Shown here piece after piece: positions 4,117-30,799 of a stretch of DNA of 37,642 bases; position 1 is the stretch's first letter, and each line of letters starts with the position of its first letter. The notes under the pieces are model-generated. The model saw nothing but the letters and a program-made list of their open reading frames with translations. It made no database searches and had not been told where the DNA came from. This stretch comes from a virus. A program made the position numbers and the translations under genes. The DNA lies in the UHGV virus genome UHGV-0029174; one strand, given 5' to 3'.

Positions 4117-4790
4117 TTGTCAGATCTCCATATTGAATTGGTCTGTCGAACATACGCGGGCCGCATTTGCTCGCGGCGGCTTAACAGTCCGGCATTGTCA
4201 TGATGCAAAACAGTGTTATCGCCCAGGTAAATCATCGCGTGGCATGGGTCAGCGCCTTTAAACGGCTGGCGAATAATCACGTCACCGGGCTGAACGCTTT
4301 GCGCGTCAACCATGAAAAACCCGTTCAATGGCAGGTTCTTTATGTACAGGTTTTCCCCACGCAGCCACCACCCATCGTGGCGCTCAAAGTCAGGCAGATC
4401 CACGCCGCAAAGGTGATAGGCGTCACGAAAAAGCGAGTAACAATCCGTTTTCCCGTGCTCAAATTTACGGCCCAACAGGTGCGCCACTGGGCGGAACTTT
4501 CTCACCCTGCCACCGGAGCATAAAAACCACGGTAGGCCGGAAATAACCTGCTGTTGTCGATCCCGTGCTGACAATACCAATGAATTGTCAGTATGGGAGT
4601 GGAAAACGGCTGTTATAACGCCAAGTTCGTCAGCTTTGATATAATCGTCAGGCGAGATTTTAAAGCTGTTGTGCGGCGTTTCTGACACGTTAGCGCACGG
4701 GTAAAAATAATCGTTATCTATCACCAGCCCGCACACTTCCTCGCGCGGGTGGGCTGCCGCATAGCGAATCATTTTATCTTCAAGTGCCAT
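4059..4790 (-). CDS. K: tail assembly protein K-like (MPN/JAB motif plus NlpC/P60-like Cys-His domain)
   Basis: HSHTDNS...S..D JAB-like motif and C...H NlpC/P60-like motif; start trimmed to MALEDK (ATG 4790) directly after L stop at 4793. Confidence 0.8.
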   Translation of the reverse strand: MALEDKMIRYAAAHPREEVCGLVIDNDYFYPCANVSETPHNSFKISPDDYIKADELGVITAVFHSHTDNSLVLSARDRQQQVISGLPWFLCSGGRVRKFRPVAHLLGRKFEHGKTDCYSLFRDAYHLCGVDLPDFERHDGWWLRGENLYIKNLPLNGFFMVDAQSVQPGDVIIRQPFKGADPCHAMIYLGDNTVLHHDNAGLLSRREQMRPAYVRQTNSIWRSDKCSNLDLRAIFEDITARCV

Positions 4791-4792
4791 AA

Positions 4793-5497
4793 TTAACCGA
4801 CCTTGCTTGATCCGGGGAAACATGAAATTGGTAACGGATTGGGGCGCGGGAAACGCAAACGGCAACCGCTCAGGCGGTGGCTGCATTTATCCAGTTTTGG
4901 ATCGCTGGTCGATTCGTCTTTATCTGTAGCCACAGGGCCGCCACTGTATCCGCAACCGTCGCCCCGGTATTGCCACTGGCAAACGTCAGCGAGGATTGTG
5001 CGCCCAGGGATAACTGCCTTGTCGGCATCAATTGGCGTTGAAAGTTCATATTGCACCTGGTCGGCCGTTTCTTCGCTCATCGCCTCAACGACGTAAAAAG
5101 ATACAGCCTCGATAGACGGATCTGCATCCGGGTTGCCATTGGGGAAGTTGACAGCGTCCAGATATTTTACTTCCACCTGGCGGCGCGTAACCTTCATTCC
5201 TCGCAGGTCGTTAAAATCGTTGTTCATCCCGGTGATTAGCCCGCCAATGTTGGCTACTACCATTTGCGGGCGCGAGTAAACGCCTTCGTTTTTCATTTCG
5301 AAGCCAGTAGCCTCGATTGGGTAGCTGTTGTAAGTCACTCCCTTCCAGATAACCGGGCCGTAATAACCATTCGCGCCGGAATGGAAGCGGATAACCTCGC
5401 CACCCAGGGGTGTGAGGTCTAATTCAAACAGGTCAATTACCGCGCCGACTCCGGCATCGACGGAATCAATAATCATTTCTGTAGGTATGCTGCGCAT
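4793..5497 (-). CDS. L: minor tail protein L
   Basis: SD AAGGTGA; RRQVEVKYLDAVNFPNGNPDADP and QWQYRGDGCGYSG closely resemble lambda L (RRKVYARFLDAVNFVNGNSYADP; TWTYRGDECGYSG). Confidence 0.85.
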   Translation of the reverse strand: MRSIPTEMIIDSVDAGVGAVIDLFELDLTPLGGEVIRFHSGANGYYGPVIWKGVTYNSYPIEATGFEMKNEGVYSRPQMVVANIGGLITGMNNDFNDLRGMKVTRRQVEVKYLDAVNFPNGNPDADPSIEAVSFYVVEAMSEETADQVQYELSTPIDADKAVIPGRTILADVCQWQYRGDGCGYSGGPVATDKDESTSDPKLDKCSHRLSGCRLRFPRPNPLPISCFPGSSKVG

Positions 5498-5515
5498 TTT
5501 TTCACCTTGTCATTT

Positions 5516-5531
5516 TGTGATCGCTGTCACG
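5516..5531. promoter_or_regulatory. CRP-like palindrome TGTGA-N6-TCACg centred ~63 bp upstream of the predicted start of promoter 5551..5579
   Basis: TGTGATCGCTGTCACG; near-identical TGTGATCGCAATCACG at 34021..34036. Confidence 0.4.
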
Positions 5532-5550
5532 CTAAATCATACCAAAACGG

Positions 5551-5579
5551 TTGATCGCGATTTTTACAATATGTATATT
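5551..5579 (+). promoter_or_regulatory. sigma70-like promoter (TTGATC-N17-TATATT) for plus-strand cassette
   Basis: -35 at 5551..5556, 17-nt spacer, -10 at 5574..5579, upstream of SD AAGGAA and ATG 5596. Confidence 0.5.
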
Positions 5580-5595
5580 GTACTCAAAAGGAAGC

Positions 5596-5829
5596 ATGGT
5601 TAACAAAATGGCGCGGAGGTATGAGGTGGATGATAAGGTGTGGAGGTTGACGGTGTTCCTTAGTGATGGCAGGGAAATGACTGTTGCCCTGTATAAAGAT
5701 GAAGGCGAGGCACTTACTGACGCGCTATTACTCGCTGAAGACGAAAGGGTTTTGGGGTACAGGATTAAACCTGTCAAATGGGAGGTTATAACAAAAAATG
5801 AAAAAATACAGGTTAGACGTGTGGACTGA
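5596..5829 (+). CDS. hypothetical protein (78 aa), first gene of antisense cassette between L and M
   Basis: ATG 5596 with SD AAGGAA; in frame with track ORF 5551..5829. Confidence 0.5.
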   Translation: MVNKMARRYEVDDKVWRLTVFLSDGREMTVALYKDEGEALTDALLLAEDERVLGYRIKPVKWEVITKNEKIQVRRVD

Positions 5830-6148
5830 TAAATGCGAATGGGAAAGCATGGGGCTATTTGACACATTTGAATCAGCGCGTGATGAAGGTTGCGAATTGC
5901 TCCGCTGTTGGTCTAACGCTCGTGATTATTATGTTATTCCTGTACAAGTACCGGATAAGGCGGAAGAGATGAACCCGAAAGACATTAACTTTAACGTCAA
6001 TGTTGAATTCGCTGATTCTATGGATCAGTCTTGCCCTGGTGAAATACACGCAAAAGGTTTCCCGGCAGACAATCCAGAAGCAAAACGCGAATACGAAAAA
6101 GCTGCGAAAGACTTCTGCATAGATAACCTGGGCGCATTCGATAAATAA
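5798..6148 (+). CDS. hypothetical acidic protein (116 aa)
   Basis: Track ORF; overlaps upstream gene end; GGGAGG upstream. Confidence 0.5.
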   Translation: MKKYRLDVWTDKCEWESMGLFDTFESARDEGCELLRCWSNARDYYVIPVQVPDKAEEMNPKDINFNVNVEFADSMDQSCPGEIHAKGFPADNPEAKREYEKAAKDFCIDNLGAFDK

Positions 6149-6157
6149 GGCGGCAAC

Positions 6158-6406
6158 ATGGGGCGGCGCAATCACGGTGATTATGTGTACACGTTGAAAC
6201 AGGCCGCCCGCCTCATCGGTTATCATGAGCACGAATTTATTGATTTGCTGATTGAGCGCGGGATACTGTACCAGGTCTGTTTAACACTGTACCCAAAAGC
6301 GAAATACCTACAGGAAAAGTTATTCATCATCATGACGGATGAAAACCAGGTTAATCATTCATTCGTCACTGATAAGGGCGTTAATTATCTGCGTGATAAC
6401 TTATAG
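6158..6406 (+). CDS. hypothetical protein with HTH-like segment (TLKQAARLIG...IERGIL), possible DNA-binding regulator
   Basis: Track ORF; SD AAGGCGG; HTH call is by eye. Confidence 0.45.
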   Translation: MGRRNHGDYVYTLKQAARLIGYHEHEFIDLLIERGILYQVCLTLYPKAKYLQEKLFIIMTDENQVNHSFVTDKGVNYLRDNL

Positions 6407-6416
6407 GTGACAGATT

Positions 6417-6533
6417 ATGAAAATAGAAGTTTTGGCGCTAATAATAATGGGATTGATAGTGTTTGGCGTTCATGCTGTAGATCTGGACTGGAAAACGATA
6501 GCGGAAAATATAGCGTTAATGGAAATGGGATAA
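6417..6533 (+). CDS. small membrane peptide (38 aa, MKIEVLALIIMGLIVFGVHA...)
   Basis: ATG 6417 with SD AGGTGA; hydrophobic N-terminus; ends just before terminator hairpin; below track size cut-off. Confidence 0.35.
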   Translation: MKIEVLALIIMGLIVFGVHAVDLDWKTIAENIALMEMG

Positions 6534-6537
6534 TAAT

Positions 6538-6566
6538 AACCCCGCCGTGGCGGGGTGTTTTTTTTA
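6538..6566 (+). terminator. rho-independent terminator (CCCCGCC-gtg-GCGGGG then T8), weaker on the minus strand
   Basis: GC stem-loop followed by TGTTTTTTTT, between convergent genes. Confidence 0.6.
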
Positions 6567-6776
6567 ATCGTAGGATAGAAATGCTACTTCTTTGCCATCC
6601 CAAGTCGTACAGCCGATATATCCATCACCCATGTCATGAAGATACCACGTCTCACCGTTATCAGCCCGTACAGTGAGATCATTAATTTCATAGTCGGCAA
6701 ACAATGTGAAAGCGCCAGTGCGCTCCACTACACAAAAATAAGGCATACCCCCTCCCTTAATTAATAACTTGCTCAA
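6564..6776 (-). CDS. hypothetical protein (70 aa)
   Basis: Track ORF directly downstream of M. Confidence 0.45.
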   Translation of the reverse strand: MSKLLIKGGGMPYFCVVERTGAFTLFADYEINDLTVRADNGETWYLHDMGDGYIGCTTWDGKEVAFLSYD

Positions 6777-7110
6777 ACGTTGCGTTTAGTGTGTACACAG
6801 GCCCGTCTTTGGTCATGCTCCAGCTACGGCAAACGAAAAGCCTTTGCACCCCATCCATCGAAGGCGTCCAGTAGAAAGCATCGACAGCGCCTCGCGCCCT
6901 CAAGAATGCTTCTGCCTGGATCGCTACATTCCCACTATCACCGCACCCCGCACTACTGCCTTTAAAAACCAGGGTGTAACTATCAAGTAATGTGTTAATC
7001 CCTTTCGCCTGTCTTTGTTCATAGTTGTCACCAAGTTTAATGACAGATACGTTTGGTTCCCTGGTCACGCTGTAGCTTCTTTGCGGCGTCCATCTGAAAA
7101 CTTCCGGCAT
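6757..7110 (-). CDS. M: minor tail protein M
   Basis: SD GGGGG; FRWTPQRSYSV, YWTPSMDG and C-terminal ATFEQVIN resemble lambda M (FRWKVKPGMDV, LWTPPYEW, AEFEQVVN). Confidence 0.8.
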   Translation of the reverse strand: MPEVFRWTPQRSYSVTREPNVSVIKLGDNYEQRQAKGINTLLDSYTLVFKGSSAGCGDSGNVAIQAEAFLRARGAVDAFYWTPSMDGVQRLFVCRSWSMTKDGPVYTLNATFEQVIN

Positions 7111-7140
7111 GATTCCCCCTATAAGTTACATATTGCATAC

Positions 7141-7178
7141 ATCTTTACGCGCTGCTACGCGAAAAATGAGAAATTCAT
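7141..7178 (-). promoter_or_regulatory. conserved ~38-bp element upstream of M (copy 1; second copy 19364..19400 upstream of portal)
   Basis: Plus strand TTTACGCGCTGCTACGCGAAAAATGAGAAATTC vs TTTACGCGTTGCTACGCGAAAAATAGAAAAATTC. Confidence 0.4.
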
Positions 7179-7198
7179 CACAAGAATTATAACCAGTT

Positions 7199-7238
7199 TA
7201 CAAAATGGCTTCACATAAGGCGTGACAAGATGTATATA
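7199..7238 (+). promoter_or_regulatory. promoter for second plus-strand cassette (ACAAAATGGCTTCACA; -35 TTCACA; -10 TATATA)
   Basis: 15-mer ACAAAATGGCTTCAC identical to 10546..10560; TTCACA-N17-TATATA. Confidence 0.45.
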
Positions 7239-7280
7239 GTAAGCAAGAAGAAAAAGCAGTACCGACAAAGGGGGGGCAAT

Positions 7281-7436
7281 ATGGAACGCTATGTGGTTGT
7301 GATGCTGAACAAAGCATTCGAACAGGTGGAAGTTGCGATTGTGAAGGGCTTTGATGATGCATTCAAATACGGTCAATTCATGATGAATGCAAAAGAAGAT
7401 GAATACCGTGATTTCTTCCTGAAAGTGGTCAACTAA
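7281..7436 (+). CDS. hypothetical protein (51 aa; track ORF 7230..7436 trimmed to ATG with SD GGGGGG)
   Basis: Strong SD before ATG 7281; the predicted promoter places the transcript start inside the longer track ORF. Confidence 0.45.
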   Translation: MERYVVVMLNKAFEQVEVAIVKGFDDAFKYGQFMMNAKEDEYRDFFLKVVN

Positions 7437-7454
7437 TGGATTGTGGGGTGTGTT

Positions 7455-7709
7455 ATGAAATTGGTAGCGATTGGTAAAAATCTGAAAGCACAGAAAAACG
7501 CACAGGACCGGATCATCAAAAAGGGCAAGGCTTTATTAAATGCTTTCCTGAGAAAAGAGGCCACCCCCAAAAAATTACGCGATGGCTACGGTTATAAATT
7601 TGATATTAACCCCGATTGGCGGTTATTCAGCGAAGATTTAAAGGCGTGGTTAATTATCGACCATCTGGAATATAACAGGCACTGTGGGGTGAAAGGCGCT
7701 CACAAGTGA
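7455..7709 (+). CDS. hypothetical basic protein (84 aa)
   Basis: ATG 7455 with SD GGGGTG; in frame with track ORF 7443..7709. Confidence 0.45.
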   Translation: MKLVAIGKNLKAQKNAQDRIIKKGKALLNAFLRKEATPKKLRDGYGYKFDINPDWRLFSEDLKAWLIIDHLEYNRHCGVKGAHK

Positions 7710-7740
7710 CACGGATTTGAATGTTGCGGAGGAAAACAAA

Positions 7741-7911
7741 ATGAAAAACCCGGCAAATAAAAGCAACGTAAAACGCATAGCGTGGGTGCTAAAATATATG
7801 GATAGCAAAGGGGATACATATACATGCCCATTTTTCAGGTATACTGACGCGGTATTTGCCAGAAGTGTACACGGAGGGAAAATTGAAAGAGGATATACAA
7901 GATTTGAGTAA
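7741..7911 (+). CDS. hypothetical protein (56 aa)
   Basis: ATG 7741 with SD GAGGAA; track ORF 7717 uses TTG. Confidence 0.45.
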   Translation: MKNPANKSNVKRIAWVLKYMDSKGDTYTCPFFRYTDAVFARSVHGGKIERGYTRFE

Positions 7912-7949
7912 ATTTATTCACGAAATCAATAACATGATGAAGGTTTATA

Positions 7950-8129
7950 ATGATTATTCACGAGACTGAAGAATGTAGAAGGATTGATCTTAGTGTTGAA
8001 GATGATGGAAGATTATGGATCGTTAGCGACTGCGAGATGATTGTAATAGACAAAAAGCAAGCTGACGAACTGATAAGCGCATTACAGCTTTATGCAAACG
8101 GCGAATTTAAGAATGATGAAATTGAATAA
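7950..8129 (+). CDS. hypothetical acidic protein (59 aa, MIIHETEECRRIDLSVEDDG...)
   Basis: ATG 7950 with SD AAGG; ends 4 nt before terminator; below track size cut-off. Confidence 0.4.
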   Translation: MIIHETEECRRIDLSVEDDGRLWIVSDCEMIVIDKKQADELISALQLYANGEFKNDEIE

Positions 8130-8132
8130 AGA

Positions 8133-8162
8133 TAGCCCCGGCATTGTGCCGGGGTTTTGTTT
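8133..8162. terminator. terminator hairpin between convergent plus cassette and tape measure gene
   Basis: 8-bp stem CCCCGGCA/TGCCGGGG, 3-nt loop, then TTTTGTTTATTT on plus strand. Confidence 0.65.
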
Positions 8163-10503
8163 ATTTCCTGCGAGGTTGTAACATCCCTCCGGGCCGTTGC
8201 GATTCCCTTGCCATCATTTTCATCGCGACGCGTTCCATCGTCTGTTCAAGTCTGCGACTGTCTTCGTCGCTAAATCCGTTTGTGGTCTGTACGGTGATGT
8301 TAACAGGCATATTGATGCCGCCACCACTGAAGAGATCGCGACCAGGAATTACCCTACCATTCTCGCCAGGAATCATATACTGACGCCCGTTGCTCGTCTG
8401 GAATAGCTCTGGTATCCCGTGTTCCCCTACGCGATACAGGCTACCACCATTAACAGAACCACCATTATAACGCCCGCCACCAAAGATTGACGTTGCCAGC
8501 GACATGATCGCAGAAAGCGCCGCAGCACCAGCCGCCGCCCAGCTACCACCAGTTGACGCCGCAGTCGCCGCCGCCGCCGGGGCCGCCGCCGCTGCAATCT
8601 GGCCTTGTGCCGCTACCGCACCAGCCGTGGTACTTGCTTGCGTGGCCTTGCTCTGTGTTTCCATCATCAACTGATCTGCTATCCAGTTGGCGGCAATTTC
8701 TGACAGTTTGTTGCCAACGGTGTTAAGTATGCTGCTTCCCAGGTTGGCAAAGACCTCGCTTAACGATTGAGTACCGTTTAGCAGGCCGGTAAGGGCATTA
8801 CCCATGCCACCCTTTAGGCCGCTAACACAAGCACCAATCAGGCTGTTTGTGTCGCTTTGCGCCTGCCATTGTTCCCATTTCAGATCCCGGATCTGTTGTT
8901 CGTGTTCCAATTGCGCTTGTCTCTGTTGCGCCTCTGTAGCGCCCAGGTCCAATAGCATTTGCTTTCTTACTGCCCATTCATTCTGTGCCTGTTTGATTGG
9001 GTCAATTTCGCCCTTAAGCTGGTCCATTGGACTAACTATTTGCGACCATTTATCACGCAATTCATCTACAGGGATTTGCGCTAATTCTTCCTTCAGTTCT
9101 TTGCCGATCCCTTTTTGCGCTGCGCGGTATTCAAGGAGTGTGATTTTACCCTGGGCGAATGCAGCATCAATGGCCTTGCCGTTCTCTAACGCTTTGCGCA
9201 TAGCGGCGGCGTCTTTGTTGTACTGGTCAGAAACGCTTATGCCTTTGTCACCAAGCCGATCAGCTTCAGATTTCTTCTCTTTTTTCTGTTTTTTCGGTTT
9301 GTCTACTGGCTTGTCGAATCCGGTAATCGCTCCGTCATTGGCGGCATTCTGTTCATTTTTCCTTGCTTCCTCTGTAGCCTGGATTGCTGCGGTCAGATCA
9401 TCCTGTAATTGCATGACCTTGCCAACGGTCTTACCGTATTTCTTCTCGTAGTTGCTGTTATATTCGTCGGTTTGCTCTCCTGCGACCTCCTTCATCCATT
9501 TGTAGGCGTCCATTAGTGCCTTGATTGGCGTCACCATTGCGATGATCTTCTCGGCCACCTCGCCAGCCTTGATTCTGACATCTTCAAACATGTCGATGAA
9601 TTCGCCACCAGCCGTCTTCAGGGTGTTAAAGCAGGTTTTAGCGAAATCAGCGCCTTCACCTAAAGCCTTAACACCTTTCGTTACAAGATCGATACCAGCA
9701 ACAACCGTATCGGATACACCGAAAAGATCATCCAATTGTTCAACAAGTCCCATAACCTCGACTTTAAGCTCATTCAGAGCCATGCCGGATGTGCGCGGCA
9801 ACTGCGCAAACTTCTCGTTTGTTTCCTGCGTAGCCGCCTGGATCGCGTTAACCATCCTTTCTGCCGTGATCTTACCGTCCAGCATTTCGGCGCGGAATTG
9901 GCCCATTGATAACCCCATCTGGCGGGCCATTGTCTGTACGATGGTCGGGGTGTTTTCTAACAGGCTATTGAATTCTTCAGCACGCAACACGCCACCGTCG
10001 ATAGACTGACGGAATTGACGCATTGAGTTTGACATCTGCTCCGCTGACGCGCCGCCCAACGCCCCCATTTTCTGAATCGTACCTACCAGGTTAAGCAATT
10101 GCCCTTCAGTGGCGGACGTGTTCTTCAGTGAGATAGCCAGACCTTGCCATAGTTCGCCAGTATCCTTCAGGCTTTGCCCAGTTTCCCTGGATATTGCTTT
10201 CAGCCCGTCGAAAACCCGTCCGGCGGACTCCGCATCGCCCGTAAGCATTTTGATTTTTACGCGAAGCATTTTTGCTTGCTCCGCCATATCCATGAATTGG
10301 CGCACAGCCTCCGCAGCAATTAGCAAATGGATAACCCTGGTCAGTGCCTTGATGGATGTTTTCAGGGTGTTTACCTGGCGGTCAGCCTGTTTTGCGCCGC
10401 GCTCTATACGGTCAAAAGCCTGGTCGGCCTGGCGTTGTGCAACGAGAAGTTGACCAGTTTTCGCGTCAACTTCGTAATAAATTGTACCTACACTGGTTGC
10501 CAT
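8161..10503 (-). CDS. tail tape measure protein (780 aa)
   Basis: Largest ORF in tail module, upstream of M-L-K-I-J; helical Q/A/E-rich composition with Gly/Ala-rich C-terminal segment. Confidence 0.85.
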   Translation of the reverse strand: MATSVGTIYYEVDAKTGQLLVAQRQADQAFDRIERGAKQADRQVNTLKTSIKALTRVIHLLIAAEAVRQFMDMAEQAKMLRVKIKMLTGDAESAGRVFDGLKAISRETGQSLKDTGELWQGLAISLKNTSATEGQLLNLVGTIQKMGALGGASAEQMSNSMRQFRQSIDGGVLRAEEFNSLLENTPTIVQTMARQMGLSMGQFRAEMLDGKITAERMVNAIQAATQETNEKFAQLPRTSGMALNELKVEVMGLVEQLDDLFGVSDTVVAGIDLVTKGVKALGEGADFAKTCFNTLKTAGGEFIDMFEDVRIKAGEVAEKIIAMVTPIKALMDAYKWMKEVAGEQTDEYNSNYEKKYGKTVGKVMQLQDDLTAAIQATEEARKNEQNAANDGAITGFDKPVDKPKKQKKEKKSEADRLGDKGISVSDQYNKDAAAMRKALENGKAIDAAFAQGKITLLEYRAAQKGIGKELKEELAQIPVDELRDKWSQIVSPMDQLKGEIDPIKQAQNEWAVRKQMLLDLGATEAQQRQAQLEHEQQIRDLKWEQWQAQSDTNSLIGACVSGLKGGMGNALTGLLNGTQSLSEVFANLGSSILNTVGNKLSEIAANWIADQLMMETQSKATQASTTAGAVAAQGQIAAAAAPAAAATAASTGGSWAAAGAAALSAIMSLATSIFGGGRYNGGSVNGGSLYRVGEHGIPELFQTSNGRQYMIPGENGRVIPGRDLFSGGGINMPVNITVQTTNGFSDEDSRRLEQTMERVAMKMMARESQRPGGMLQPRRK

Positions 10504-10545
10504 GATTTAACCTCATGAAAATTGTGATCTAGATCTCTATTCTAT

Positions 10546-10584
10546 ACAAAATGGCTTCACTTCAACGAATACATTTTGTATAAA
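10546..10584 (+). promoter_or_regulatory. promoter (TTCACT-N17-TATAAA) embedded in inverted repeat TACAAAATG-N18-CATTTTGTA
   Basis: 15-mer identical to 7199..7213; 9-bp inverted repeat arms span -35 to -10. Confidence 0.5.
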
Positions 10585-10661
10585 GAAGACAAAGGAAAGG
10601 GATAGAGTAAAGGGGTTTGAAAGGACCGGATAAACCGGAGGAAGCAAAAGAGGATAAGAAA

Positions 10662-10751
10662 ATGAAAAACGTAAACTACCGTCCCAACGAACATGAGCGC
10701 TATGCAGACTTTATCGAAGAAATGTTAAAATCACTTAAAAACAAAAACTAA
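10662..10751 (+). CDS. small ORF (29 aa, MKNVNYRPNEHERYADFIEEMLKSLKNKN)
   Basis: ATG 10662 with SD AAGAGGA at the end of a GA-rich leader; below track size cut-off. Confidence 0.3.
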   Translation: MKNVNYRPNEHERYADFIEEMLKSLKNKN

Positions 10752-10764
10752 ACGGGGGTGGGTT

Positions 10765-11262
10765 ATGAAGCGGTTAGTAAAAGTTGCGGTAGCTGCGGTC
10801 ATGGCGGTATTCGCGGTCAATGCAAATGCAAATAATGAAGTTAGCAAGATGTGTGATGTGCTGTATCCAGCCTACGAACAAGCATATACAATGGCAAATG
10901 CAAACTTCTTTTCAATTGGCAGACACGGCATTAACTGGGAATATTTCATCTTAAATGAAGATAGCAGGACCAAAAAAGGTGACGCTGAAATGATAAAAGC
11001 GCACGGTGAAAGTTTCGCTTTCGTGATGGCTGCTGCTGAAAATAAACAAAATGACAATGAATTTAAAAACTTTGTCGCTGGACTTGCCATCATGGCTGCT
11101 GAACGGGCGGTAAAAGATCACGACAACAACGCTTATGACGCTGCCGACGGGATGGCATTAGATAGGGTAAGAATTGACTTCAAAAACATGTGCGTCAAAG
11201 AAGGCGCTAACATGTATAAAAAAGTAATAGATAAACACCACGAATATTATATAGGTTATTAA
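10765..11262 (+). CDS. secreted/periplasmic protein with signal peptide (165 aa), antisense within tail module
   Basis: SD GGGGGTGGG; N-terminal MKRLVKVAVAAVMAVFAVNANA signal-peptide-like; own promoter and terminator. Confidence 0.6.
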   Translation: MKRLVKVAVAAVMAVFAVNANANNEVSKMCDVLYPAYEQAYTMANANFFSIGRHGINWEYFILNEDSRTKKGDAEMIKAHGESFAFVMAAAENKQNDNEFKNFVAGLAIMAAERAVKDHDNNAYDAADGMALDRVRIDFKNMCVKEGANMYKKVIDKHHEYYIGY

Positions 11263-11292
11263 AAAAGGCCCGGCTAATCCCGGGCTTTTTCT
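11263..11292. terminator. bidirectional rho-independent terminator (GCCCGG-ctaat-CCGGGC flanked by A6 and T5)
   Basis: A-run/stem-loop/T-run readable on both strands between convergent genes. Confidence 0.7.
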
Positions 11293-11963
11293 TGCTCGCT
11301 ATTTTCCATTCTTTTTAGTATCTCCATAGCCTCCCTCATTCCATCGTCATAAGCCTTTTTATCCAGTAATACATCTGGTCGTTTTTGTTTGTTTCTTGCT
11401 TCTGGCGGCGTTTTAGCACGCACAGCGGCCCTATATCCGGTCATTGTCATGCCCCATGCTTCAGATTCAGACAATCCCAGGTGAGCAACGGCAGAATAAA
11501 CATACTCAAGGATGTCGAATGTCTGCTTATAGTCGCCTTCCTGCTCCTCGCCAGCGTCTTCATCTGGTCCGTCACCAATTAAGCCGTGATACATGCAGTG
11601 TTGCGCCAGCGTGATAACATCATCAACTGGCATTATTCCCGGTTTTAATCTCAATTTACCCGAAGGAGTGAACCAGCATTCGCCTAATAACGGGCCTGTT
11701 TCGTCGTCTGAGCAACATTTCAGTATGTGGATGGATGTTTGCACTATCTCACCATAACACCGCGCCATAATGCGATTGCGGAGGTCTGGATCTGTAGGTA
11801 ATCGTGAAGGGTATTTGCTGCCGTGGATAAGTGCGAAATATTCGACAAGCTCACTATCATTGCCGATTTTAGCCATCGCAGCAAAGCAAGGATTAAACTC
11901 ATAGCGCTTACCGTTCACCACAGCCGCAAATTGTCCTGTACGAACATGGATCATAGTATTCAC
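11274..11963 (-). CDS. tail protein, possibly tail assembly chaperone (229 aa; acidic internal segment)
   Basis: Position between major tail candidate and tape measure; no homology recognised. Confidence 0.35.
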   Translation of the reverse strand: MNTMIHVRTGQFAAVVNGKRYEFNPCFAAMAKIGNDSELVEYFALIHGSKYPSRLPTDPDLRNRIMARCYGEIVQTSIHILKCCSDDETGPLLGECWFTPSGKLRLKPGIMPVDDVITLAQHCMYHGLIGDGPDEDAGEEQEGDYKQTFDILEYVYSAVAHLGLSESEAWGMTMTGYRAAVRAKTPPEARNKQKRPDVLLDKKAYDDGMREAMEILKRMENSEQEKARD

Positions 11964-26415: not shown

Positions 26416-26727
26416 TTAAAATTCTGCACCAGGTAAGCTACGCGCTTTATTTACCGCATCGTGTTTTAACGATAAACCAGCGTGATAATTCATAATCCCC
26501 ATATTACCAACCGGTATTTCATTATTTTCTGCCTTTATTCTTAACAACTGGTTTTTAGTGAAGATCCTGTCTCCATCAGTGATATATAACCAGTCGCCGC
26601 GCTTACCAACAACAACATGAGATCTGCCTAAGCTGTCTTTAAATTCATAATTGCAGAAAACATCACCTTTAGGCACTTCAACAAAACAGCACGCAATGAA
26701 CTTATCGCTTTTCATGATTTTGCCCAT
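26416..26727 (-). CDS. hypothetical protein (103 aa)
   Basis: Track ORF; first gene after internal promoter/palindrome. Confidence 0.5.
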   Translation of the reverse strand: MGKIMKSDKFIACCFVEVPKGDVFCNYEFKDSLGRSHVVVGKRGDWLYITDGDRIFTKNQLLRIKAENNEIPVGNMGIMNYHAGLSLKHDAVNKARSLPGAEF

Positions 26728-26744
26728 CCGTCTTTCAGTGGCTT

Positions 26745-26785
26745 ATATATAACAAAATGGCACTGCCTAAACAATGCCATTTCGT
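26745..26785 (-). promoter_or_regulatory. internal promoter-like element with palindrome ACAAAATGGCA-N12-TGCCATTTcGT and extended -10 (TGT-TATATA)
   Basis: 11-bp inverted arms with 1 mismatch; minus strand CCATTTTGTTATATA upstream of ATG 26727. Confidence 0.4.
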
Positions 26786-26827
26786 ATACATTGTGATACA
26801 AGTCACATTTTGCGCAATTAACTTTTA

Positions 26828-30724: not shown

Positions 30725-30799
30725 TACAAAATGGATACGTGCAAACAAGACGAAAAGCGCCATTATGTGACATCAATCACACAATGACGCCATTTTGTA
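30725..30799. promoter_or_regulatory. inverted repeat TACAAAATGG ... CCATTTTGTA (10-bp arms, 55-bp spacer) with -10-like TATACT on minus strand
   Basis: Same ACAAAATGG / CCATTTTGT motif as at 7199, 10546 and 26752; upstream of ninF-like gene. Confidence 0.35.

Follow-up and report, generated by a model that had tools for sequence, protein, structure and literature searches.

In lambda, the tail genes M and L are adjacent. In UHGV virus genome UHGV-0029174, of which a stretch of 37,642 nucleotides was analyzed (hereinafter referred to as the window), an initial annotation had described about 1.2 kb between these two genes, occupied by four plus-strand genes antisense to the tail operon, and had proposed that they form an independently regulated accessory cassette. 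This raises the question of what the insert (hereinafter cassette A) is and which factor controls it. The separation was confirmed and measured 1,259 bp (5498-6756). The four plus-strand open reading frames (ORFs) were present and are coding in relatives, and a minus-strand ORF that had been missed was identified in the same gap.

With moderate confidence, and judging from sequence comparisons, cassette A is explained as a self-contained accessory operon ("moron") that is probably expressed from the prophage and probably activated by the cyclic AMP (cAMP) receptor protein (CRP) bound to cAMP. The cassette is very probably autonomous. The part of the initial proposal that concerned independent accessory organization stood: promoter elements and a terminator were conserved, the G+C content was lower than in the flanking genes, the content was variable, and the cassette was lost in one relative. 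The initial annotation had taken cassette A alone, and missed two sister cassettes (B and C) as well as a minus-strand promoter-like match upstream of L.

The window was assigned to an mEp021-like (mEpimmI group) coliphage or prophage. It is oriented opposite to the forward direction of the phage, so that the tail genes are on the minus strand, with the tail genes K and I further along, beyond L. The mEpimmI group consists of Nus-dependent, non-lambdoid temperate coliphages, called prevalent in the human gut by their describers (Negrete-Mendez et al., 2025; PMC11893012). The cassette region matched seven phage records at 90-93% identity (mEp554, mEp013, mEp044, mEp010, mEp021, mEp515, and MagusPhagus), all of which are mEp021-group phages or a close relative. 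Its DNA also matched at 81-93% in 35 of 5,426 complete Escherichia coli genomes, and prophage tail regions were the location in all 15 E. coli matches whose annotation was inspected. The mEp records already annotate the cassette genes, which are genes 71-74 in mEp021, as hypothetical proteins. In the main text of the paper describing the group, the terms "moron," "CRP," "opposite," and gp70-gp74 were not found; a KilAC-like protein is listed there as a core gene, and the cassette genes are otherwise undiscussed (PMC11893012).

Coding content, variation, and loss of cassette A

The cassette was compared among 64 related loci: seven came from phage records, 13 were E. coli prophages, and orf3 led to the other 44, all of them IMG/VR contigs. 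The ratio of nonsynonymous to synonymous substitution rates (dN/dS) was calculated pairwise, each relative against the window. All four plus-strand ORFs were under purifying selection (dN/dS well below 1), with values of 0.10-0.43 for orf1, 0.07-0.25 for orf2, 0.00-0.32 for orf3, and 0.00-0.38 for orf4. Both orf2 and orf3 were present in 63 of the 64 loci, orf1 in 59 and orf4 in 43, and orf1 was variable or replaced in some relatives. The distance between L and M ranged from 1,135 to 1,891 bp among the relatives, several of which hold extra or alternative small genes; Pfam gave no family for any of these extra genes. Judged by presence and absence, the gene content of the cassette varies around a fixed orf2-orf3 core. 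The cassette also differed in composition from the tail genes (G+C 0.40-0.46 versus 0.47-0.58), and the sign of the GC skew flips. The additional 70-amino-acid ORF on the minus strand, found in 63 of the 64 loci with dN/dS of 0.05-0.31, belongs to the tail-operon strand and lies outside the plus-strand cassette.

For orf1, the gene described initially was retained and its start was corrected, most likely to GTG 5626. This codon is ATG in most relatives and stands 6 nt after GGAGG, and an in-frame ATG at 5596 is unconserved among the relatives; the start was therefore placed at 5626.

One relative with M and L adjacent and without the cassette was found. In E. coli MS 21-1 (NZ_CP146670.1, 3096-3219), the two genes are only 124 bp apart, and the missing stretch extends from the ribosome-binding site of orf1 through the stop codon of M, the 70-amino-acid minus-strand ORF included. 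The cassette A promoter and palindrome are kept beside L, as is cassette B. The M and tape measure proteins of MS 21-1 are identical to those of the cassette-bearing prophage in strain CB7286; the loss is therefore a recent deletion, and a prophage can be carried without the cassette. MS 21-1 can thus serve as a ready-made control strain.

In the proposed mechanism, the Q-dependent late operon would be silent in a lysogen, leaving the predicted cassette promoter (P_A) free to fire, and the plus-strand intrinsic terminator behind orf4 would keep antisense RNA from entering M. Read on the minus strand, the terminator hairpin has nothing but UUAUUAUUAU behind it. Once late growth is under way, polymerase modified by Q and arriving from M would cross this weak minus-strand side of the terminator and then the cassette, occluding P_A. 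Gene 37 of mEp021 is annotated as a Q-type late regulator. The mEp021 record has terminators annotated at the homologous position for both strands; other mEp records have them for the tail-operon strand.

Predicted promoter region and palindrome of cassette A

Conservation upstream of orf1 was measured as column entropies over 49 distinct related upstream sequences. The promoter-like site TTGATC-N17-TATATT of the initial annotation was found at P_A with conserved hexamers: the -10 was invariant in all 49 sequences, TTGAT of the -35 was kept in 48 of the 49, and the spacer between the hexamers had an entropy of 0.32 bits. The CRP-like palindrome, said initially to lie about 63 bp upstream of the start, agreed in both pattern and place, with its center at -62.5 from a start assumed 7 nt after the -10. 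Its single mismatch to the CRP core is at the outermost base, where the lac CRP site is also mismatched. The half-sites were nearly invariant (TGTGA, 0.03 bits; TCACG, 0.11 bits), with 0.71 bits in the 6-bp spacer between them and 0.24-0.39 bits in the flanks. The 49 sequences contained 17 versions of the 16-mer, nearly all of which differ in the spacer alone. Since the half-sites are conserved and the spacer is free, the palindrome is likely to be the site of a dimeric DNA-binding protein. By this measure, conservation across the 49 relatives lifts the palindrome and promoter site well above chance.

The CRP-type pattern with at most one mismatch was found five times in the window against 1.03 expected, and none of 100 shuffled sequences reached five; by our reading of the ORF maps, all five sites are intergenic. 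Class I CRP sites are centered near -61.5, -71.5, -82.5, or -92.5, and the lac site at -61.5. Spacing studies of CRP-site positions were reportedly made by Gaston and colleagues in 1990. The conserved half-sites, the free spacer, and a position compatible with class I together plausibly strengthen the reading as a CRP site, and we give about even chances to the palindrome of cassette A acting through CRP-cAMP in the class I manner. The dimer on TGTGA-N6-TCACG would then be host CRP-cAMP serving as a class I activator, and the CAAAAYGG segment next to the weak -35 would offer a docking surface for the C-terminal domain of the RNA polymerase alpha subunit. Cassette expression would be expected to rise under carbon limitation. 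A search of the literature for morons under the control of CRP gave no relevant result.

Other features of the upstream region were also recorded. GATC (Dam) sites occur at 5519-5522, in the left half of the palindrome, and at 5553-5556, in the -35; they are not strictly conserved, and the phage encodes several DNA methyltransferases. An 18-bp near-palindrome, TACAATAT-GT-ATATTGTA (5565-5582), spans the -10 of P_A and a -10-like hexamer of the minus strand, and may represent either an operator or the central part of two divergent promoters that overlap. A LexA box at this near-palindrome was rejected, as CTG-N10-CAG is not present in the sequence. An RNA hairpin or leader structure was likewise rejected for the palindrome and the 5' untranslated region, which fold no better than shuffled sequences (z = -0.98 and -0.05, respectively); the predicted leader thus has no stable structure. 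Rfam, searched with permissive thresholds over 4700-11400, gave sub-threshold chance matches only.

Table 1. Features of the tail region and of the four promoter modules, in window coordinates.
Feature	Position	Strand	Description
Palindrome of cassette A	5516-5531		TGTGATCGCTGTCACG; TGTGA-TCGCTG-TCACG, 9/10 core positions of TGTGA-N6-TCACA
A-rich motif	5543-5550	+	CAAAACGG (CAAAATGG in many relatives); directly 5' of -35, UP-element-like
Predicted promoter P_A	5551-5579	+	sigma-70 consensus scan; predicted start about 5586
P_A hexamers	5551-5556 (-35), 5574-5579 (-10)	+	TTGATC, TATATT; 17-bp spacer
Predicted 5' leader	5586-5625	+	conserved GTTAACAAAATGGC 5599-5612; Shine-Dalgarno GGAGG 5615-5619
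orf1	5626-5829	+	67 amino acids, GTG start, phrog_29559
orf2	5798-6148	+	116 amino acids, phrog_38567
orf3	6158-6406	+	82 amino acids, KilAC (ANT) domain alone, PF03374
orf4	6417-6533	+	38 amino acids, hydrophobic N-terminal stretch VLALIIMGLIVFGV
Intrinsic terminator	6539-6565	+	7-bp G+C stem, about -14 kcal/mol, then G and T8
L	4793-5497	-	PF05100, E 4.9e-72
70-amino-acid ORF	6564-6776	-	phrog_3249, E 3.3e-16; overlaps end of M
M	6757-7110	-	PF05939, E 1.5e-28
Tape measure gene	8161-10503	-	tail gene
Module A	palindrome at 5516	+	center -62.5
Module B	palindrome 7167-7182	+	TGAGAAATTCATCACA, center -70.5; ACAAAATGGC 7200-7209; -35 TTCACA; -10 TATATA 7233-7238
Cassette B	7167-8156	+	antisense island between M and tape measure gene
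Cassette B ORFs	7281-7436, 7455-7709, 7717-7911, 7950-8129	+	first 51 amino acids, second ParE-like; terminator 8134-8156
Module C	palindrome 10523-10538	+	TGTGATCTAGATCTCT, center -60.5; ACAAAATGGC 10546-10555; -35 TTCACT; -10 TATAAA 10579-10584
Cassette C	10523-11262	+	antisense island between tape measure gene and next tail gene
Cassette C ORFs	10662-10751, 10765-11262	+	29 amino acids; 165 amino acids with signal peptide
Module D	26739-26807	- (phage forward strand)	perfect TGTGACTTGTATCACA at 26807, center -60.5; GAAATGGC; -35 TTGTTT, N17, -10 TATATA

Sister modules and candidate proteins recognizing the palindrome

The promoter design of cassette A recurred in the window. The motif ACAAAATGGC, allowing one mismatch, was found 15 times against 4.99 expected, including six exact copies, five of them intergenic. 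A module scan for CAAAAYGG followed by a -35, N16-18, and a -10 returned 12 candidates, and an upstream palindrome was present in only four, designated modules A to D (Table 1). In modules B, C, and D, as in A, the A-rich motif stands immediately next to the -35. The predicted centers of all four palindromes are within about 1 bp of -61.5 or -71.5. That of module B is shifted by 10 bp from those of the other modules, a distance that would leave it on the same helical face and so satisfy a requirement of class I activation. Given the likeness of the palindromes and promoters of modules A to D, a single promoter type appears to serve a small group of accessory operons in this phage.

The conservation pattern of the cassette A palindrome was repeated in module B (56 distinct sequences) and module C (seven sequences). 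In module B, the half-sites had entropies of 0.26 and 0.14 bits and the palindrome spacer 0.82; within the promoter, the values were 0.11 (-35), 0.16 (-10), and 0.63 (spacer). In cassette B, the ORF at 7455-7709 matched ParE_like (PF24732, E 3.7e-11), and the 51-amino-acid ORF together with this ParE-like protein (7281-7709) could form a toxin-antitoxin pair antisense in the tail operon. Some E. coli homologues of the ParE-like protein are annotated as "ParE family toxin-like." In slot C, the promoter region is retained among relatives and the cargo is exchanged; several E. coli prophages, for instance, encode a protein there whose annotation is TagO. By these comparisons, cassette C behaves as a cargo hot-spot.

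Module D is located upstream of the ORF at 26416-26727. It was considered as the Q-dependent late promoter and rejected, as a promoter-terminator pair better suited to this role stands immediately upstream of the holin gene. This likely Q-dependent late promoter, TTGCAA-N17-TAGCAT (24475-24547, minus strand), is followed about 30 nt on by a strong terminator upstream of the holin gene, a layout resembling lambda PR'-tR'. In addition, a 31-nt repeat, 93.5% identical, is present on the minus strand at 7137-7167, upstream of M, and at 19358-19388, across the start of the portal gene. It contains the direct repeat CGCGTA-N4-CGCGTA, and the copy upstream of M is strongly conserved in relatives.

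Several observations weigh against CRP as the activator and against P_A as the element under conservation. The left half-site of module B was TGAGA, TAAGA, or TGATA and never TGTGA in the 56 distinct sequences, and its -10 (TATATA or TATACA) has no final T; the right half-site of module C is TCTCT. In relatives with a 1-nt insertion, the cassette A palindrome is centered at -63.5, at the edge of class I tolerance. Sigma-70-like matches within 4 kb numbered eight against 8.1 expected, and since this frequency is at chance, a lone match means little. An equally good minus-strand match, TTGTTA-N18-TACAAT (5606..5577), overlaps the -10 of P_A and points at L; it could account for part of the conservation of P_A. 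The promoter and palindrome retained by MS 21-1 without the cassette imply that this region also travels with L. Moreover, two palindromes, at 30766-30781 and 34021-34036, are outside any promoter module, so the protein that recognizes such sites could be other than CRP, and some of the sites may not be activating.

Both of the latter palindromes lie between early-region genes. The first is perfect and sits within a long hairpin at the place of TERM_4, a terminator predicted in mEp021, in which nutR2 has been placed downstream of the cytosine methyltransferase gene (PMC11893012). The mEp021 homologue of this site has kept the half-sites and has a different spacer. The second is just downstream of a -10-like ATGTATATT, and a second copy of TGTGATCGC is found beside it (also 33994-34002).

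An unlikely alternative is that the palindrome is the operator of a dimer encoded by the phage itself, for which orf3 is the obvious candidate, acting as an autoregulator or as a master regulator of modules A to D and of the sites at 30766 and 34021. The orf3 product, the most conserved of the cassette, has a predicted model of the MerR/Xis-type DNA-binding fold, and the departures of modules B and C from the CRP core are themselves fixed and conserved (position 3 is A in module B, and module C has TCTCT). The window contains two perfect 10/10 palindromes, and such perfect matches are rare among natural CRP sites. The flank GTCATT(T/G)-YGTGAT is also common to the sites at 5516 and 30766. However, half-sites and 6-bp spacing correspond exactly to a CRP site, class I activation is compatible with the positions, and MS 21-1, without orf3, keeps the palindromes of A and B unchanged. 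A CI-like repressor as the recognizing protein was rejected, as the mEp021 immunity region has one degenerate copy of the palindrome and no operator-like cluster.

It is improbable that the conserved elements serve the tail strand instead, with internal promoters restarting transcription of L-K-I-J, M, and the tape measure gene after the islands and with the palindrome modulating them. Candidate promoters can be named at each of these places: TTGTTA-N18-TACAAT or TAAAAT upstream of L, TATAAT at 7191..7186 (ATTATA 7186-7191, invariant in all 56 sequences) for M, and a conserved -10-like TAGAAT or TAAAAT at 10544..10539 for the tape measure gene. In B and C, the predicted minus-strand start and the palindrome overlap, annotation places terminators of the tail-operon strand behind the ORF that follows M, and the region is retained in MS 21-1 despite the loss of the cassette. 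Nevertheless, by our reading M and the tape measure gene have poor -35 candidates, with 1-3 of 6 positions matching. CAAAATGG consistently stands beside a -35 of the plus strand (B and C) or of the forward strand (D), and not beside a minus-strand element. In module B, the hexamers of the plus strand enclose the variable stretch, which is where a promoter on that strand would be expected to vary, and a Q-type antiterminator makes internal late promoters unnecessary. Promoters on the two strands could overlap and are not mutually exclusive. In an extended form of the CRP reading, a dimer bound in B and C would also cover the minus-strand start of M or of the tape measure gene.

Gene products and relation to known systems

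The gene described initially as having a helix-turn-helix-like segment proved to be orf3. Its product is a KilAC domain matched to PF03374 over residues 10-82 (29.9 bits, against a Pfam gathering cut-off of 25.3; E 7.4e-7), and its predicted model resembles a winged helix of the MerR/excisionase (Xis) type. No AntA/AntB, Bro-N, or Rha N-terminal domain was found in orf3, and a sequence search of solved structures gave no significant match. The synonymous divergence (dS) of orf3 (6158-6403) from relatives was 0.08-0.66, generally below that of L (4796-5497, up to 1.1) and M (6760-7110, up to 2.6), suggesting recombination or extra constraint on the orf3 DNA.

The orf2 product consists of an N-terminal beta-beta-alpha-beta domain, confidently modeled and strongly different between relatives, and a nearly invariant C-terminal tail (DSMDQSCPGEIHAKGFPADDP...DFCIDNLGAFDK). 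Its model had no informative structural neighbor. A word-based search returned 58 clusters, and a profile search of 1.84 billion proteins gave 15 matches, of which nine overlap the word-search set or are fragments of at most 80 amino acids and three are long proteins aligned over short repeated stretches. On these searches, the orf2 family is confined to this phage clade. Aligned by hhalign with the N-terminal domain of orf2, orf1 scored E 0.0056 at a probability of 6.6%, a hint of paralogy too weak to support such a claim. More tentatively, orf1 and orf2 may both be fast-evolving, clade-specific proteins. The small membrane peptide of the initial annotation corresponds to the hydrophobic orf4, which had no family match in any library searched and may be an optional membrane peptide, as tentatively judged from its sequence and occurrence. 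NCBIfam models gave no match for the nine proteins of cassettes A and B, nor did PADLOC models at E up to 0.1, anti-defense models not being included in the search.

Alternatively, cassette A could belong to the lytic cycle, with expression early or midway through infection, and act through proteins (host takeover or anti-defense) or through convergent transcription that delays or tunes the tail genes. In favor of this, the cassette is convergent with M, the tail operon is interspersed with three antisense islands, and the N-terminal domain of orf2 evolves fast over a fixed tail, a pattern associated with diversifying pressure such as arms races. On the other hand, the strong plus-strand terminator halts antisense RNA before M, the cargo of the sister cassettes (a ParE-like toxin pair, a secreted protein, and the protein annotated as TagO) is typical of prophage expression, and none of the known PADLOC models was matched in a search confined to defense models. 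We regard a lytic-cycle unit as highly improbable. With its rapidly diversifying domain, orf2 is a candidate for functions in phage-host or phage-phage conflict.

The orf3 protein may be a DNA-binding regulator, or might damp the SOS response as does the isolated KilAC domain of AriS. The one experimental lead found for this domain comes from Listeria, in which the KilAC domain of AriS expressed alone inhibits SOS (PMC9043618); most mEpimmI phages are not UV-inducible (PMC11893012). Damping of SOS by orf3 would fit, because the group is poorly UV-inducible. This link draws on a single Gram-positive system and on a domain of roughly 30% identity at most, which counts against it, and by analogy we consider an action of orf3 on SOS or induction rather unlikely. 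The complete scheme, in which a CRP-driven regulon of four paralogous promoters with weak hexamers and Q-silenced slots would be combined with a cargo/tail toggle in B and C and with orf3 suppressing SOS or RecA-mediated cleavage of the repressor, is improbable as a whole. If true, it would explain the lack of UV inducibility of most of the group and tie prophage stability to the carbon status of the host. If a lone KilAC domain damps SOS, that lack would be explained and the AriS result would extend from Listeria to enterobacteria.

Apart from this, the locus offers a clean comparative case of temperate phage cargo inside an essential late operon, with fixed promoter-terminator slots and exchangeable content, and a concrete test of whether CRP-cAMP, a global host regulator, drives prophage accessory genes. 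Two points are new: comparison gives evidence that a CRP-type site is conserved, and three antisense slots and one forward block are recognized as having one promoter design. Morons themselves are a well-known kind, of which cassette A is a fairly ordinary example.

Morons of lambdoid and HK97-like phages, such as bor and lom of lambda, were reportedly described by Juhala and colleagues in 2000 and by Hendrix and colleagues. At the sequence level, extra DNA, a terminator, and distinct composition were all found in cassette A. Like morons, it consists of extra genes between genes that are adjacent in relatives, with its own promoter (predicted here) and terminator, a base composition unlike that of the flanks, and content variable among close relatives, and its loss leaves the neighbors intact. 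It differs in being antisense to the late operon, in holding several genes, and in being one of three tail-operon slots with a common CRP-type promoter design. The lipoprotein of the group for which exclusion has been tested was considered as a cassette gene and rejected, since it is gp81, downstream of J.

The promoter region resembles a class I CRP promoter of the lac P1 type in its 9/10 core, a center about 62 bp upstream of the predicted start, a suboptimal -35, an A-rich stretch between the site and the -35, and conserved half-sites with a free spacer. It differs in that the sister modules depart from the core in fixed ways and in that the site is 1 bp further upstream in some relatives. 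Among ANT/KilAC proteins (P1 Ant1/2, the Rha/Bro/AntA-KilAC regulators, and AriS), orf3 belongs by passing the Pfam KilAC threshold. Unlike the two-domain members, it is a lone 82-amino-acid domain, 32-38% identical to the nearest such relatives, and it is placed in the tail operon rather than near the immunity region.

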